Shown here: positions 59,068-64,000 of the stretch, one piece after another
Layout of the letters: each line of letters starts with the position of its first letter
How positions within the stretch are numbered: the first letter of the stretch is position 1
Notes under the pieces: model-generated
The model's database searches: none
Told to the model about the DNA's origin: nothing
The model's input: the letters and a program-made list of their open reading frames with translations, nothing else
Source: Clostridia bacterium
GTDB lineage: Bacteria; Bacillota; Clostridia; Oscillospirales; CAG-272
Length of the DNA: 64,000 nt
Direction of reading: 5' to 3'
NCBI GenBank assembly: GCA_017505785.1
Contig: JAFVOQ010000004.1
Coordinates: forward strand, 733 to 64,732
Position numbers and translations under genes: made by a program

Positions 59068-60510
59068 ATGCCATTTGTATTTATCGGAATTGCAGTAGGC
59101 GTACTACTTCTGCTCTTCGTCATTTTCGGCTATCTCAAAGCCCCGCCCGATACCGCTTACATCATTTCGGGTCTTGGAAAAAAACGCATTTTGATCGGTA
59201 AAGCCGGTTGGCGCGTTCCCTTTTTCGAGCGTGTAGATAAGCTCTCCTTGAGTGTTATGCAGGTAGACGTAAAAACATCTGAAGCAGTGCCCACCAACGA
59301 ATTTATCAACGTTTCGGTTGACGGTGTTGCCAACATCAAAATTTCTTCTGATCCCGAGCTTTTAAAGCGCGCAGCGGAATCCCTGCTTGGCAAAAACAGA
59401 CAGGAGCTGATCACACTTGTCACCCAGGTGCTTGAGGGTAACATGCGTGAGATCGTGGGCTCGGTAGGCCTGAAAGAAATGGTTCAAGACCGCCAGGGCG
59501 TTGCCAAAAAGATCACCGAAAACGTGGTTCCCGATATGGAAAAGCTGGGTATTGAGGTCGTAAACTTCAATATTCAAAACTTTAAGGACGGTGCCGGCAC
59601 GATCGAAAATATGGGTATCGACAACGTGGAGCAGATCCGCAAGAACGCCCAGATCGCGAAGGCAAACGCCCAAAGAGATATTGCTATCGCCACCTCCAAT
59701 GCACAGCAGGAGGCAAACGCCGTAAAGGTAGAGGCAGAAAAGAAGATCGCCGAGCAGAATGCCGAGCTTGCTGTTCAGCAGGCAGACATGCAGGTGCGCG
59801 CCGACACAAAAAAGGCGGAAGCAGATGCCGCTTACTCCATTCAGCAGGAAAATCAGCGTAAGATCATTGAGATCGCTAAGACCAACGCAGATATCGCACG
59901 CCGTGAAAAGGAAGCCGAGCTTGCCGAAAAGGAGATCGCCATTCAGGAGCGTCGTCTGGATGCGGAGATCAAAAAGCAGGCTGACGCTATGAAGTATCAA
60001 TCCGAGAAAGAAGCCGAGGCTGAACTCATTAAGCGTCAAAGAGAAGCCGATGCGCGCCAGTACGAGGCTGTTAAGGCAGCCGAAGCAAAGCGTGCCGAGG
60101 CAGAAGCATTGCGCTTTGCCATGGAGCAAGAGGCAGAGGGTATCCGCGCCAAGGGTCTTGCTGAGGCTGAAGCTATCGAAAAGAAGGCCGAGGCACAGAA
60201 GAAAATGGGCGAAGCCTCCGTGCTTGAAATGTACCTCTGCGCTCTGCCCGAGGTCGTGAAAAACGCCGCTGCTCCCCTTGCTAAGACTGACAAGATCGTG
60301 ATGTACGGCGACGGCAATTCCACCAAGCTGGTGCGTGACGTTATGAACAGTGCCGATCAGATCATGGCAGGCGTAAAGGAATCTACCGGTATTGATATCG
60401 GTAGCCTGCTTGCAGGCTTTGTCGGCGGCAAGGCATCCGCTACAAAGGTTGAAGAAATCCCCGAAACAGTTGCAGTTGCCGAAGCTGACGCTGAGGCTGA
60501 CGCCGAGTAA
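59068..60510 (+). CDS. Flotillin-like SPFH/band 7 protein
   Basis: 480 aa. An N-terminal membrane hairpin is followed by an SPFH domain and a long A/E/K-rich coiled coil (flotillin repeats). Confidence 0.88.
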   Translation: MPFVFIGIAVGVLLLLFVIFGYLKAPPDTAYIISGLGKKRILIGKAGWRVPFFERVDKLSLSVMQVDVKTSEAVPTNEFINVSVDGVANIKISSDPELLKRAAESLLGKNRQELITLVTQVLEGNMREIVGSVGLKEMVQDRQGVAKKITENVVPDMEKLGIEVVNFNIQNFKDGAGTIENMGIDNVEQIRKNAQIAKANAQRDIAIATSNAQQEANAVKVEAEKKIAEQNAELAVQQADMQVRADTKKAEADAAYSIQQENQRKIIEIAKTNADIARREKEAELAEKEIAIQERRLDAEIKKQADAMKYQSEKEAEAELIKRQREADARQYEAVKAAEAKRAEAEALRFAMEQEAEGIRAKGLAEAEAIEKKAEAQKKMGEASVLEMYLCALPEVVKNAAAPLAKTDKIVMYGDGNSTKLVRDVMNSADQIMAGVKESTGIDIGSLLAGFVGGKASATKVEEIPETVAVAEADAEADAE

Positions 60511-60526
60511 TCATAAAAAAGGCAAG

Positions 60527-60559
60527 CCGCCCACCCTCACGGGTGGGCGGTGTTTATAT
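60527..60559 (+). terminator. Rho-independent terminator after the flotillin gene
   Basis: CCGCCCACCC tcac GGGTGGGCGG followed by TGTTTATAT. Confidence 0.8.
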
Positions 60560-60659
60560 AAAAGCACTGCTTTCTTTGCCTTTTCTTCCAAAACTGCATC
60601 AACTTTTTCAATCACCGCAAAAATTTACAAAACAAGTTTTGCATTTTTTAAAAAAGCTA

Positions 60660-60688
60660 TTGCTTTTTGCAATTTCATGTGCTATAAT
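60660..60688 (+). promoter_or_regulatory. Promoter upstream of the tRNA-Ser region (TTGCTT-17-TATAAT)
   Basis: TTGCTT at 60660-60665, a counted 17-nt spacer, and TATAAT at 60683-60688. Confidence 0.6.
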
Positions 60689-60731
60689 AACACATGTTTT
60701 GAGTCACAATGTAAGCAAAACATAATATTTT

Positions 60732-60960
60732 GGAGAAGTACTCAAGTGGGGACGTTTGCGAGCGCTGCCGGTGGCGGATGAAGGAAGGCGAACGAGTGTG
60801 CAGCCTGTCCTCGGCTATCGCCGAGCACTGCAAGTTTGCCTTTGGCAAACATTGCGCGTCAAAATTTGGCGAAGCGAACAGCGAGCAACAAATTTTGGGC
60901 ACCGCAACAGGGTCGAAGAGGCGACGCCGACTCCCGAACATTCCTGCAAGATGCTTTTCT
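60732..60960 (+). ncRNA. Structured, non-coding-looking segment carrying a split copy of the tRNA-Ser 5' half
   Basis: GGAGAAGTACTCAAGTGG (60732-60749) matches tRNA positions 1-18 at 17 of 18. GGTCGAAGAGGCG (60911-60923) matches the following 13 nt exactly. The 161 nt between them contain several clean hairpins. No T-arm or 3' acceptor strand is present. Confidence 0.45.
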
Positions 60961-60979
60961 GACAATTTAATATTTTTAT

Positions 60980-61070
60980 GGAGGAGTACTCAAGTGGTCG
61001 AAGAGGCGTGACTCGAAATCTCGTAGGCCGTTAACGCGGCGCGTGGGTTCAAATCCCACCTCCTCCGCCA
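60980..61070 (+). tRNA. tRNA-Ser (anticodon CGA), class II with long variable arm, CCA encoded
   Basis: Manual fold: acceptor GGAGGAG/CTCCTCC, D-arm CTC-AAGTGGTCGAA-GAG, anticodon loop CT-CGA-AA, long variable arm, T-arm GTGGG-TTCAAAT-CCCAC, discriminator G plus CCA. Confidence 0.9.
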
Positions 61071-61075
61071 AAAAA

Positions 61076-61107
61076 GGACTGCCCCCCCTCGTGGGCAGTC
61101 CTTTTTT
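61076..61107 (+). terminator. Rho-independent terminator after tRNA-Ser
   Basis: GGACTGCCC cccctcgt GGGCAGTCC followed by TTTTTT. Confidence 0.85.
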
Positions 61108-61287
61108 GGTATCACATTTCTTTTCACGACAACTGATTCTTTTCCGGTTCATTCTTCAATTATATATTCTTTTAATATTCTCATAATGAAATCCGCACTA
61201 GCAGGAGTATCTTCTTTTCAATTTTTCCAACTTAACATGGATGCAAAATTTAGTGATTAGAGACAACGTGTCTCGAGTCTTATTTAC

Positions 61288-61316
61288 TTGACAACAAATT
61301 GCCACTATGATATACT
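61288..61316 (+). promoter_or_regulatory. Promoter for the two-gene cassette (TTGACA-17-TATACT)
   Basis: TTGACA at 61288-61293, a counted 17-nt spacer, and TATACT at 61311-61316. Confidence 0.65.
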
Positions 61317-61352
61317 TGTATAAAGTTCTCAATGTTTTAAGAGGAGCCATTT

Positions 61353-61565
61353 ATGAGTGTTAACAACTTTATCATTAAAAACTGTGAGTTAATTTCTGAA
61401 GACACCTCGATTGCATTATCTGGCGGTACAATCTCGGAATTAATAGCAACTTTAATTTGCAAGCAAGCAGAAAATGCAGACGAATCCTACGACACCATTG
61501 ATCTTTACAAAAAAATTGAAAAACACATAAGTGAAGCAATTAGCCACTGCGAAACAATGTTTTAA
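61353..61565 (+). CDS. Small acidic hypothetical protein (70 aa)
   Basis: AGAGGAG RBS. The protein reads MSVNNFIIKNCELISEDTSIALSGGTISELIATLICKQAENADESYDTIDLYKKIEKHISEAISHCETMF. I recognise no family. Its stop is 32 nt before the next gene. Confidence 0.6.
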   Translation: MSVNNFIIKNCELISEDTSIALSGGTISELIATLICKQAENADESYDTIDLYKKIEKHISEAISHCETMF

Positions 61566-61597
61566 AAAGACACTCTCTAACTATTTTGGAGGAAAAC

Positions 61598-62680
61598 ATG
61601 TCATCAAAACCTAAGGTATTTGTTATAACTCCTTTTAATGAGGATTTGCTCGCACTATACGAAAAACTCAAACGCACATTTGCAGATGAGTATGATTTTA
61701 ACAACGCCGGTGATTTAGATAACCAGCAAAATATTTTACGAGATATTGTTGAAGGCATACATGCCGCGGATGTTATTATCGCTGATTTAACGGGATTAAA
61801 CGCAAATGTTTTCTACGAGTTAGGATTAGCTCATGCCATGAATAAAAAAGTCATTATTATTACTCAAGACTTGAGCGAACTTCCTTTCGATATTAAAAGT
61901 TATCGCGCGAATGAATACAGTTTATTATTCTATAAGTTGCCTAACCTAATCGACAAACTAAAAGAACTATTAGCAGGTGCTATTAATGGTTCTATTCAAT
62001 ATGGAAATCCCGTATCTGATTTTATTCCCCACCTTCCCATTGCTAAACCCGAAAGTTCACCGCAGATATTAGACAACCCGCCATGTGAAAACATAGGTGA
62101 ATCAAGCGAAGGAGAAAATGGCTTTTTAGATGATATAGCCGACATACAAGAAAATGCCGATAAATTGACAAATGAGTTAAACCACATGACCGATGAATTG
62201 CAAGATCTGAATACCGCTGTAGAAGCTGCAAATCAAGATATTAATCGTGTCAAAAGTAAAAGTGGCGTCACAGATATATCGTTTGTTAGAAGTATTTGCC
62301 GCAAATTAGCCATTCCCACCGACAAACTTGCTAACCAAATCAAGATGCACAACGCAGAAATTGCAAACTATTGGAAAATTATCGAAAATAGTTATTTGTC
62401 TTTATTAGACAATAAATATGCGAGAACGCCCGATAATCTTAAGGGCTTGAGAGATTCGGTTTCTCAATTGCGAAATATGCAGCTTAGCATCAAGGGTTCA
62501 AACGAAAAGATCGAGTCGTTCGTTGCTGTGTTAAAAACAACTATGGGGATAGAACGCAAACTTAATCAAGCCGTCACAGCCCTGATAACAGAATTTGAAG
62601 CATATCTGCGCCAAACGGATACGATGCATTCCTCGATTGATAGAATTATCAGTAAAAGCAATTTAGTAACAGGTAATTAA
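61598..62680 (+). CDS. Nucleoside 2-deoxyribosyltransferase-like / TIR-like Rossmann domain fused to a ~200-aa coiled-coil region
   Basis: ATG 61598 has a GGAGG RBS at 61588-61592. The N-terminus reads KVFVITPF...DIVEGIHAADVIIADLTGLNANVFYELGLAHAMNKKVIIIT, the pattern I associate with NDT-like/TIR-like N-glycosidase folds (conserved Glu at 61817-61819). The C-terminal half is heptad-like and rich in E/K/N/L. Confidence 0.6.
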   Translation: MSSKPKVFVITPFNEDLLALYEKLKRTFADEYDFNNAGDLDNQQNILRDIVEGIHAADVIIADLTGLNANVFYELGLAHAMNKKVIIITQDLSELPFDIKSYRANEYSLLFYKLPNLIDKLKELLAGAINGSIQYGNPVSDFIPHLPIAKPESSPQILDNPPCENIGESSEGENGFLDDIADIQENADKLTNELNHMTDELQDLNTAVEAANQDINRVKSKSGVTDISFVRSICRKLAIPTDKLANQIKMHNAEIANYWKIIENSYLSLLDNKYARTPDNLKGLRDSVSQLRNMQLSIKGSNEKIESFVAVLKTTMGIERKLNQAVTALITEFEAYLRQTDTMHSSIDRIISKSNLVTGN

Positions 62681-62699
62681 CACCCTATCTTATTCAGTC

Positions 62700-62736
62700 C
62701 CGCACGCCCTTTTGGGCGTGCGGATTTTGTTTATTT
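62700..62736 (+). terminator. Rho-independent terminator after the cassette
   Basis: CCGCACGCCC tttt GGGCGTGCGG followed by ATTTTGTTTATTT. Confidence 0.85.
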
Positions 62737-63250
62737 CCCCTCCCCCAATGCTTCGTCAATGGTCATCGCGCACTCTGCGGTGCTGGCGGCGTCCACTGTG
62801 GCACACTTCGTATGATGTTCGCCGTTGTGGAGATGTTACTGTGACCCAGCCACTGCCCAATCAGCTTCATTTGCACGCCCTGCGCGACAAGGAGCGAAGC
62901 GCAGGAGTGGCGCAGGTCGTGGAAGCGAATGTGCTTGAGGTCGTTCTGCCGCAGGATCGTGGCAAAGCGGTTGCTCACGTAATCGGGCGTGACAGCTCGC
63001 CCAGCGCGTTCAGGCACACGTAGTCCGCATCCTTGCGACAATACGCGTTGCCAAGCACCTTGGCGCGCTCCTTTTGCTTTTCTCGCTCCTCCAGAAGCAG
63101 CGCCTTGATGGCGGGGCTTAAACCAAGCGCGCGGTGCGAGGACACGGTCTTCATCACGTCATAACCCACAGGTCCCTCGGGTGTGTGCCGCACGCTGCCG
63201 TAAGGCGCAACGTTGCCACGCTAAAGCTCCTCCAAGATGTTAGCCATTCC
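62731..63250 (-). pseudogene. Tyrosine recombinase/integrase remnant (catalytic domain only, with frameshifts and an in-frame stop)
   Basis: Two ORF fragments in different frames (62975..63193 and 62763..63041) together read KTVSSHRALGLSPAIKALL...HIRFHDLRHSCASLLVAQGVQMKLIGQWLGHSNISTTANI. A 1-nt shift occurs just before the expected catalytic Tyr (NI-YEV in the neighbouring frame). There is a stop after MANILEEL. The N-terminal SAM-like domain is absent. Confidence 0.75.
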
Positions 63251-63322
63251 CCTCACCTCCCGATGCAAAAACGGCGGCCGCGCTACCGAGATCACTCTCG
63301 GCAATGCAGTCGCCGTTTTGTT

Positions 63323-63484
63323 TCATTTTTCTGCTGCGATCAGCGTCTGACGGACGATTTCTAGCTCCAAGCGCGTTTGCTCGTCCACCGTTTTGTCTGG
63401 TACCAACAGCATCGCCTTGAACACTTCGCCCATCACGCCGTAGCGCTCCCCGTAGTATAGTTCTTTCACTGTGATTTTTGCCAT
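63323..63484 (-). CDS. Small ORF (53 aa) with a strong RBS, upstream of the integrase remnant
   Basis: Own translation gives MAKITVKELYYGERYGVMGEVFKAMLLVPDKTVDEQTRLELEIVRQTLIAAEK. AGGAGG lies 7 nt upstream. It falls below the ORF-track length cutoff and is followed by a hairpin. Confidence 0.4.
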   Translation of the reverse strand: MAKITVKELYYGERYGVMGEVFKAMLLVPDKTVDEQTRLELEIVRQTLIAAEK

Positions 63485-63594
63485 TTTTGCTACCTCCTAT
63501 GTTGGTAGCACACACTATACCACAAGTTTTCGGGAAAGTCCAGAAAAGAAAGTGTTAAATTTCAAAAGTGCAATATAAAAATGGAGTCTTATTC

Positions 63595-64000
63595 TCACTC
63601 ATTTTCCCACTCCATCTCCGCTTGTTTTAAAAAAGTTAAATTTTTATTTCTTCTTAAATCATCAAATCCCCGTTTTCCAAATATGCTCACAAGATTTTTT
63701 ATATATGTTTTCACTGCATTGGATGAGTGATAAAGAATAAAAATTCTATTTGACAGATCAAACAAATCGATAATAATATCTTGATCTGTTATATCAAGCG
63801 AATGCCCTATAACATATAAAGAATAGCCGTTATCATATTTACGGGTTTGATTCAATGCTTGAATTTTGTTCAAATACGAATCATCCGTCTTAAAAAACAC
63901 CCTTTGGAAATATTTTTTGAATTGAATGAAAGTAGTATCTAATTGCATTAACTCGTCTCGTTCATCTGGATTTATTCCAAGAACAATATCTTTGTCAACA
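63595..64000 (-). CDS. AbiH-like abortive infection protein, C-terminal part (gene runs off the right edge)
   Basis: YSLYVIGHSLDITDQDIIIDLF matches the AbiH-family GHSL..D motif region as I remember it. The reading frame stays open upstream of the listed Met to the window end (..DKDIVLGINPDERDELMQLD..). Very AT-rich. Confidence 0.6.
   Translation of the reverse strand, partial: VDKDIVLGINPDERDELMQLDTTFIQFKKYFQRVFFKTDDSYLNKIQALNQTRKYDNGYSLYVIGHSLDITDQDIIIDLFDLSNRIFILYHSSNAVKTYIKNLVSIFGKRGFDDLRRNKNLTFLKQAEMEWENE

Follow-up and report, generated by a model that had tools for sequence, protein, structure and literature searches.

The window analyzed in this study is a stretch of 64,000 nucleotides (nt) from Clostridia bacterium (GenBank assembly GCA_017505785.1, contig JAFVOQ010000004.1), and at positions 61353-62680 of this window two open reading frames (ORFs) encode a 70-amino-acid (70-aa) protein and a 360-aa protein. 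This locus raises the question of whether the two ORFs form a two-gene defence cassette, in which the 70-aa protein serves as the partner of the 360-aa protein, as was proposed in a sequence-only reading of the window, or whether the 360-aa protein acts alone, and if so, whether it acts in defence or in nucleotide metabolism. The 360-aa protein is identical to a database protein (P0001), which is labelled "nucleoside 2-deoxyribosyltransferase [Clostridia bacterium]" by NCBI and likewise by UniRef. On balance, the evidence inclines us to the view that the 360-aa gene works on its own and belongs to a large, as yet unnamed family of accessory genes, and that its product is a single-polypeptide sensor-effector acting against phages or other mobile elements.

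N-terminal domain of the 360-aa protein

The AlphaFold2 (AF2) model of the 360-aa protein, which was built with 46 homologs and has a mean predicted local distance difference test score (pLDDT) of 78, consists of a beta-alpha domain, a disordered linker and four long helices. The beta-alpha pattern extends over residues 6-130. PF05014, a family of the Nribosyltransf clan, matches the full protein with 31.8 bits and the N-terminal domain (N domain) with 33.5 bits, both above the gathering cut-off of 28.8, and the match spans only ~60 residues. This match is also precomputed for nearly all homologs. When the N domain is compared with the PDB by Foldseek, the structures retrieved are those of nucleoside 2-deoxyribosyltransferase (NDT; 7o62 and 8pqq), human DNPH1, the CMP N-glycosidase BcmB (4jen) and TIR-STING (9lmq), with template modelling (TM) scores normalized to the target of 0.6-0.72 and identities to the metabolic enzymes of 17-23%. 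The N-domain profile also matches rat Rcl/DNPH1 with an E-value of 2.6e-5.

Glu74 (codon 61817-61819) of the 360-aa protein aligns with the catalytic Glu in the GYELG motif of DNPH1/Rcl, and Asp49 (codon 61742-61744) aligns with Asp80 of DNPH1. Glu74 is invariant not only among the 46 family members, but also among 32 diverse N domains and 42 proteins with other architectures. The residues that are invariant across the 32 diverse sequences are F8, V9, P12, N70, V71, Y73, E74, G76, D98 and Y107. These results suggest that the N domain is an N-glycosidase of the NDT/DNPH1 fold with a conserved Glu, and the NDT/TIR-like N-glycosidase pattern that the sequence-only reading had recognized is borne out by the PF05014 match above the cut-off, by Foldseek and by the Rcl/DNPH1 profile. 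The N domain is most likely catalytically competent, because it keeps the predicted nucleophile Glu74 and an Asp residue at the position of Asp80 of DNPH1.

PF13271 (DUF4062) does not match the isolated N domain even at E<=10, PF15891 (Nuc_deoxyri_tr2) matches it with an E-value of 0.034 and 14.9 bits, which is below the cut-off of 30, and none of the Pfam TIR families PF01582, PF13676 and PF10137 matches the 360-aa protein. Distant homologs match TIR families weakly (TIR_2, E=0.19; CAP12-PCTIR_TIR, E=0.16), the N-domain profile matches Cap12 (7un8) with an E-value of 0.026, and the PADLOC TIR effector model (PDLC00733) gives a partial match to residues 43-107 with an E-value of 1.7e-10. The 360-aa protein is also matched by PHROG 3634, to which no function is assigned, with an E-value of 1.8e-22.

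C-terminal four-helix domain

The linker that follows the N domain is acidic (pI 4.05), its residues 143-172 have pLDDT values of less than 50, and its columns are variable in the 46-member alignment. The C-terminal region of ~185 residues (C domain) is modelled as four antiparallel helices at residues 176-222, 227-271, 278-314 and 320-359. When the C domain is modelled alone by AF2, the pLDDT is 90.9 and the predicted TM score is 0.82. Eleven residues of this domain, F229, W259, E263, N264, G317, E319, R320, Y336, L337, S346 and R349, are invariant in the 46-member alignment. A conserved tip of the domain carries SFVRxxCRKL and GxERxLN, and GFLD, W259-D271 and S345-K353 mark an end of it. The region had been described from the sequence alone as a coiled coil with no other recognizable domain. 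This description is correct in that the region matches no Pfam family, but it misses a conserved four-helix domain with 11 invariant residues.

No structure in the PDB or BFVD matches the fold of the C domain significantly. The top PDB match has an E-value of 0.029, and the proteins retrieved are ClyA-type toxins, with TM-scores of less than 0.46 and root mean square deviations of up to 40 Å, and designed helical bundles. The NCBIfam matches of the C domain to XaxA and MakE are weak and far below the cut-offs. A pore-forming role was considered and rejected, because the protein has no hydrophobic segment (the highest 19-residue Kyte-Doolittle mean is 1.17), and no transmembrane-like segment is found in the C domain.

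Among 1.84 billion proteins, the C-domain profile retrieves 325 representatives. The N domain is also present in 78 of the 149 top matches listed, and the matches without the N domain are mostly apparent gene fragments or long coiled-coil proteins. Three metagenome proteins of 436-437 aa (P0244, P0271 and P0272) have a different architecture, similar to that of the Swarozyc defence protein, in which a DUF4062-like head is followed by the four-helix domain and a winged helix. The middle domain of P0244 is the same four-helix domain as that of the 360-aa protein (hhalign probability 97.4%, E=1.5e-11), and the GFLD and GxE motifs are shared by the two. The head of P0244 is DUF4062-like (PF13271, E=2e-3), one of its relatives being named DUF4062-containing by UniRef, and its C-terminus is a winged helix-turn-helix (HTH) domain of the MarR/HTH_24 type (HTH_24, E=9e-14). 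The four-helix middle domain is present in only 3 of the 120 P0244 relatives listed. These architectures suggest that the four-helix domain is a module able to serve two different N-glycosidase heads. We propose that the C domain is a regulatory, oligomerization or sensor module, and such a role fits because the domain apparently serves both heads.

Size, spread and modularity of the family

Relatives of the 360-aa protein form 1,386 clusters at E<=1e-3. The best 120 of them are all full length (348-391 aa), and both domains are present in every one. Full-length members with identities of 25-74% are found in Clostridia, Erysipelotrichales, Bacilli, Bacteroides, Desulfovibrionaceae, Chloroflexota and Actinomycetota. 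The family occurs mainly in gut Bacillota and its distribution is phylogenetically patchy. No full-length member is found in 50,697 phage records, in 72,556 plasmids or among the best 80 of 164 IMG/VR matches, where only relatives of the N domain are found.

In other proteins, the N domain is joined to TPR-S, MAP3K_TRAF_bd, SLOG or Mrr_cat modules, which we take to be building blocks of biological-conflict systems. Relatives that consist of the N domain only are frequent in prophages. For example, gp16 of Staphylococcus phage SA13 (L091:3995-4645) is a 216-aa homolog of the N domain with 28% identity, its gene lies in the replication module, on the opposite strand, and gp16-like homologs of the N domain are present in 15 related Staphylococcus phage records. 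This placement is typical of an independently expressed accessory gene of a prophage. At two loci (L032:5989-7094 and L038:5998-7332), the N and C domains are encoded by separate ORFs, which represent either a version split into two genes or a pseudogene with a frameshift.

Genomic neighbourhoods of homologs

The genes that flank the homologs include genes of restriction-modification and toxin-antitoxin types, and are of the kinds usually seen in defence islands and on mobile elements. The sets of flanking genes include an EcoRI-type methylase with GmrSD/HNH, and GmrSD, HNH, NUDIX and PLD-helicase genes; a BglII endonuclease gene with two methylase genes is found at three loci. Other flanking genes encode AlwI endonuclease, type I hsdM/S and R-like products, an FRG protein and MazF. 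KilA-N genes are found at four loci, and the PADLOC candidate PDC-S22 is matched four times among the flanking genes. One homolog is flanked by Dam methylase and HNH genes on a serine-recombinase element, another has an integrase gene immediately upstream, and the island of a further homolog carries DUF4238, SLATT and SMODS, HipA and Fic genes. A tRNA gene is located within 300 bp of the homolog at four loci, in addition to that in the window. The defence-type surroundings that the sequence-only reading had noted are present both in the window and around the homologs.

The 3' flank of a gene for a rumA-like 23S rRNA m5U methyltransferase recurrently holds a homolog (loci L002, L016, L026, L017 and L020). 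These rumA-like proteins are 33-37% identical across orders, and at some of these loci KilA-N or DUF6037 cargo lies between the two genes. Thus, the 3' flank of rumA looks like an integration hotspot in Bacillota. In a metagenome-assembled genome of Desulfovibrionaceae (L033:24-5703), a homolog with 35% identity is located between a type I hsdM/S fusion (gap of 77 bp) and a helicase-type gene for a 971-aa protein (gap of 10 bp), and this homolog seems to form part of a restriction-modification operon. No partner gene recurs within two genes on either side at 34 loci. Genes for Thoeris ThsA, a CD-NTase or a cyclase are not found in the cassette, and no such family recurs among the 113 flanking proteins of the homologs.

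The family and neighbourhood data bear on the possibility that the 360-aa protein is an ordinary nucleotide-salvage or sanitizing enzyme, namely an NDT or a DNPH1-like hydrolase, which has a structural helical tail and is present on the island by chance. Its database names, the metabolic enzymes that are its top sequence and fold matches, and the location of some homologs between housekeeping genes are consistent with this possibility. We regard it as unlikely, because the similarity to the metabolic enzymes is remote and the Pfam match is short as described above, because the family is patchily spread over distant phyla and the gene has a foreign GC content, because flanks of the restriction-modification, toxin-antitoxin, integrase and tRNA types recur, because the N domain is fused elsewhere to the conflict modules TPR-S, SLOG and Mrr_cat, and because a conserved extra domain is not explained by salvage. 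The database label "nucleoside 2-deoxyribosyltransferase" is misleading in that it implies a salvage enzyme.

Small ORF upstream of the 360-aa gene

The product of the 70-aa ORF contains 3 Cys residues and is acidic, as had been noted from the sequence alone, with a pI of 4.48. This ORF is separated from the 360-aa gene by 32 nt and shares the promoter and terminator with it, and each of the two ORFs has a good Shine-Dalgarno sequence. The GC content of the 70-aa ORF is flat over the codon positions, which is atypical for a coding sequence. Its coding status is uncertain, although it may be translated, given its good Shine-Dalgarno sequence and the shared promoter. A 16-nt direct repeat, CAATGTTTTAAGAGGA (61330-61345) and CAATGTTTTAAAAAGA (61555-61570), flanks the 70-aa ORF with a spacing of 225 nt. 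This repeat could be a scar left when the small ORF entered the leader region of the 360-aa gene, or could have arisen by chance in AT-rich DNA.

A word-indexed search of 5.8 billion protein clusters with the 70-aa sequence gives a single match, which comes from the same locus and has 99% identity. No match is obtained by tblastn against 87 loci with homologs of the 360-aa gene, and no significant match is found in Pfam, PADLOC, NCBIfam or PHROG. Eight small ORFs beside homologs, mostly located upstream, show no kinship when compared with one another by BLAST, and at 34 non-redundant full-length loci the upstream genes are mutually unrelated or absent. No upstream small ORF is present at loci L002, L014 and L095; at L014, a homolog with 55% identity starts ~100 bp downstream of tRNA-Ser(cga), which is the kind of site occupied in the window too, and the gap is too short for a small ORF. 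The two-gene cassette and the partner role proposed in the sequence-only reading do not stand against these results, as the 70-aa ORF is an orphan absent from the 87 homolog loci. The 70-aa ORF is best treated as a putative strain-specific leader gene in the same transcript, perhaps with no function, and not as a conserved component.

It may still be argued that, at least in this lineage, the locus is a two-gene toxin-antitoxin or abortive-infection cassette, in which the 70-aa protein neutralizes an NDT-fold toxin or acts as a sensor for it. Antitoxins can evolve fast and can be swapped. The common promoter and terminator, the short distance between the two ORFs, the Shine-Dalgarno sequences on both and the acidity of the small protein are as expected for such a cassette, and an unrelated HTH_3 gene at L001 and unrelated small acidic ORFs at L006 and L019 occupy the upstream position there. 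Nevertheless, this explanation is quite improbable, because the 70-aa ORF has no homolog beyond its own locus, no counterpart beside the 87 homologs, no family match and a flat codon-position GC content, and because many homologs have no small ORF upstream. In addition, hundreds of lineages maintain a single gene of this family on its own, and therefore no antitoxin is needed.

Putative function of the 360-aa protein

It is very doubtful that the 360-aa protein generates or senses a nucleotide signal for an effector encoded elsewhere, or serves a mobile element by addiction or by exclusion of competitors, because no partner recurs within two genes of the homologs at 34 loci and an invariant catalytic Glu argues against a purely binding role, although TIR, DrHyd and SLOG domains can generate signals or sense non-catalytically (PMC9503650) and the gene is often located at the edge of an integrative element beside integrase, recombinase and KilA-N genes.

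If the 360-aa protein is a stand-alone sensor-effector, as is favoured here, the following mechanism may be proposed. Before activation, the enzyme would form an oligomer that the helical domain keeps inactive; a cue of infection would then act on this domain and shift the oligomeric state. NDT enzymes have composite dimeric active sites, and the activated NDT domains of the 360-aa protein would likewise pair into the dimeric active sites typical of the fold. The enzyme would then cleave the N-glycosidic bond of an essential nucleotide, which may be NAD+ or a (d)NMP/adenine nucleotide, and the infection would be aborted. Both kinds of substrate have precedents in this superfamily: DrHyd domains of the NDT superfamily are described as NADase effectors in conflict systems (PMC9503650), and the NDT-like effector of the Ec86 retron, once activated, depletes adenine derivatives (bioRxiv 10.1101/2023.08.16.553469).

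Several points weigh against this interpretation. The defence role, toxicity and enzymatic activity proposed for the 360-aa protein are drawn from its sequence, its structural model and its genomic context. The confidence of the N-domain model is moderate (pLDDT of about 70-85), and the Foldseek E-values are modest, the best being 5e-4. A sensor or regulatory role of the C domain is a conjecture, as this domain has no informative structural relative. The absence of full-length members from the phage, plasmid and IMG/VR sets is in keeping with a chromosomal defence gene, although it is no proof of one. Some loci have housekeeping flanks only (rumA/brnQ; tRNA synthetase and PTE), and the neighbourhood evidence is a descriptive listing of genes. 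Finally, PADLOC-DB v2 (2023 models) does not recognize the 360-aa protein as a system, the partial match to the TIR effector model being the only one.

That the sequence-only reading knew of no named system with this architecture agrees with the present results, since none is found in PADLOC-DB v2 beyond this partial match or in the searchable literature. The architecture of the family is not described in the searchable full-text literature, in which subscription journals are not covered. The logic by which a glycosidase of the TIR/NDT superfamily is combined with a sensing module is well known, whereas this family and its C-terminal domain appear to be undescribed. We tentatively suggest, as a possibility to which we give less weight than to the stand-alone role itself, that the family represents a previously undescribed immune system, which consists of a single protein and is abundant in gut Bacillota, and in which an NDT-fold enzyme would be gated by a new four-helix sensor that is swappable with a DUF4062/TIR-type head, and in which the substrate may be not NAD+ but a deoxynucleotide or a modified nucleotide. 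Among enzymes of this fold, DNPH1 acts on hm-dUMP and BcmB acts on CMP.

If the substrate is not NAD+, this family would have an immune chemistry that sets it apart from the known NADases of the TIR, SIR2 and Swarozyc types. Should the family prove to protect against phages, the little-explored immunity of gut anaerobes, such as Clostridia and Erysipelotrichales, would gain a small system that consists of one gene, and the C domain would be a new regulatory or sensor module, found together with two or more kinds of N-glycosidase head. The 360-aa protein would provide a test case for whether NDT-fold effectors kill through loss of NAD+ or through attack on the (deoxy)nucleotide pool.

Organization of the locus

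The features of the locus are summarized in Table 1. The ORFs, promoter, terminator and AT-rich composition are located exactly where the sequence-only reading had placed them. The promoter, which is predicted from its consensus match alone, is the top-scoring site in 60500-64000. The terminator begins 20 nt past the stop codon of the 360-aa gene and closes the transcription unit.

Table 1. Positions of the features in and around the two-ORF locus (numbering of the window)
Feature	Position	Strand	Evidence and remarks
tRNA-Ser (anticodon CGA)	60980..61070	+	ARAGORN; Rfam RF00005, 53.6 bits; island flank
Inverted repeat, perfect, 17 nt	61068..61109		CCAAAAAAGGACTGCCC / GGGCAGTCCTTTTTTGG; just 3' of tRNA-Ser
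Predicted promoter, sigma-70-type, TTGACA-17-TATACT with TG extension	61288..61316	+	11 of 12 consensus positions
Small ORF, 70 aa	61353..61565	+	ORF call; preceded by Shine-Dalgarno sequence AAGAGGAG
Large ORF, 360 aa	61598..62680	+	ATG at 61598, preceded by GGAGG Shine-Dalgarno sequence; alternative TTG start at 61586
Predicted N-terminal NDT/DNPH1-fold N-glycosidase domain, aa 1-145	61598..62032	+	PF05014, Foldseek, profile
Acidic, variable, disordered linker, aa 146-175	62033..62122	+	Low pLDDT, variable alignment columns
C-terminal four-helix domain, aa 176-360, and stop codon	62123..62680	+	AF2, alignment
Intrinsic terminator	62700..62723	+	10-bp stem with 9 GC pairs, T-rich tail
Tyrosine-integrase remnant, decayed	62763..63515	-	Several ORF fragments (at least 3)
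AbiH-like abortive-infection gene, partial (cut by window end)	63595..64000	-	PF14253, 24.4 bits, 117-aa ORF

The GC content is 0.33-0.38 over 61100-62700 and 0.52-0.60 in the flanks. Likewise, the GC content at third codon positions is 0.34-0.36 in this block, and the gyrB-like and flotillin genes of the host next to it have values of 0.57-0.66. The tRNA-Ser gene and this shift in GC content agree with the tRNA-linked island and the horizontal acquisition that had been proposed from the sequence alone, and the tRNA-Ser(CGA) gene is likely to be the integration site of the island. The hairpin formed by the inverted repeat is bordered by U/A tracts on both sides, and the GC content falls right after it. 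This hairpin looks like a bidirectional terminator at the left edge of the AT-rich block. A scan for non-coding RNAs with Rfam finds the tRNA alone, and no retron RNA is detected. Three metagenome contigs of 2.0-3.0 kb are 100% identical in DNA sequence to this region across their entire length.

A fragmented integrase gene, which the sequence-only reading did not mention, lies between the cassette and the AbiH-like gene. Its 92-aa C-terminal fragment (62763..63041) matches PF00589 with 46.6 bits, at model positions 101-163 only, and the other fragments match no family. The GC content of this remnant is 0.54-0.60, which is similar to that of the host and different from that of the AT-rich cargo on both sides. 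This suggests that the island is old and immobilized. A search of the window for an att-type repeat derived from the 3' end of the tRNA found none, and therefore the island probably continues past the end of the window.

The AbiH-like gene is AT-rich and is a separate neighbouring unit. It is partial in the window, its PF14253 score there is below the cut-off, and its identification as AbiH-like, also made in the sequence-only reading, is supported by a longer copy of 189 aa in an identical contig (L088), which matches PF14253.

Comparison with known systems

The 360-aa protein is unlike the toxins of type II toxin-antitoxin systems in that it has no conserved adjacent antitoxin, the small ORF being an orphan and the upstream genes of the homologs being unrelated or absent. 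The TIR effectors of CBASS and Pycsar, such as Cap12 TIR-STING, resemble it in a partial profile similarity across the catalytic core. The 360-aa protein differs from them in that it has no STING or SAVED sensor domain, no adjacent cyclase gene and no match to PF10137.

The retrons Ec86/Eco1 and Sen2 (type II-A) also have an NDT-fold effector, and the 360-aa protein is likewise a candidate for a role in defence. NDT-like dimerization is tied to activity in Ec86 (bioRxiv 10.1101/2023.08.16.553469), as is proposed for the 360-aa protein. In contrast to these retrons, neither a reverse transcriptase gene nor msr/msd RNA is found in 61100-64000, in which the ORFs are the two genes of the cassette, the integrase fragments and the AbiH-like gene. 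The 360-aa protein also remains below the cut-off of PF15891, and its regulation would come from a fused protein domain and not from msDNA.

The 360-aa protein shares with DNPH1/Rcl, NDT and BcmB/MilB a common fold and the (V/F)-Y/G-E-L-G nucleophile motif, and its Asp49 corresponds to Asp80 of DNPH1. It differs from these enzymes in its low identity (17-23%), in the addition of a linker and a four-helix domain, and in its island context and foreign GC content.

Swarozyc is a single-gene system with a DUF4062 TIR-like NADase, helical stalks and a winged-helix auxiliary (AUX) domain, and it is activated by the phage portal, after which NAD+ is depleted (bioRxiv 10.64898/2026.05.01.722283). Like Swarozyc, the 360-aa protein is encoded by a single gene and has an N-terminal N-glycosidase domain of the TIR/NDT superfamily with a predicted catalytic Glu, followed by helical stalks, and both are found in defence islands with a patchy distribution. 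Unlike Swarozyc, the 360-aa protein matches PF05014 without a DUF4062 match, and ends in a four-helix domain, with no counterpart of the HTH/winged AUX domain through which Swarozyc binds the phage portal. Because it has neither the DUF4062 match nor the HTH domain, the 360-aa protein is not a member of Swarozyc, from which it is set apart by the Pfam profiles and by the published description. The two are linked by P0244, which combines a DUF4062-like domain and a winged HTH domain with the four-helix domain of the 360-aa protein.

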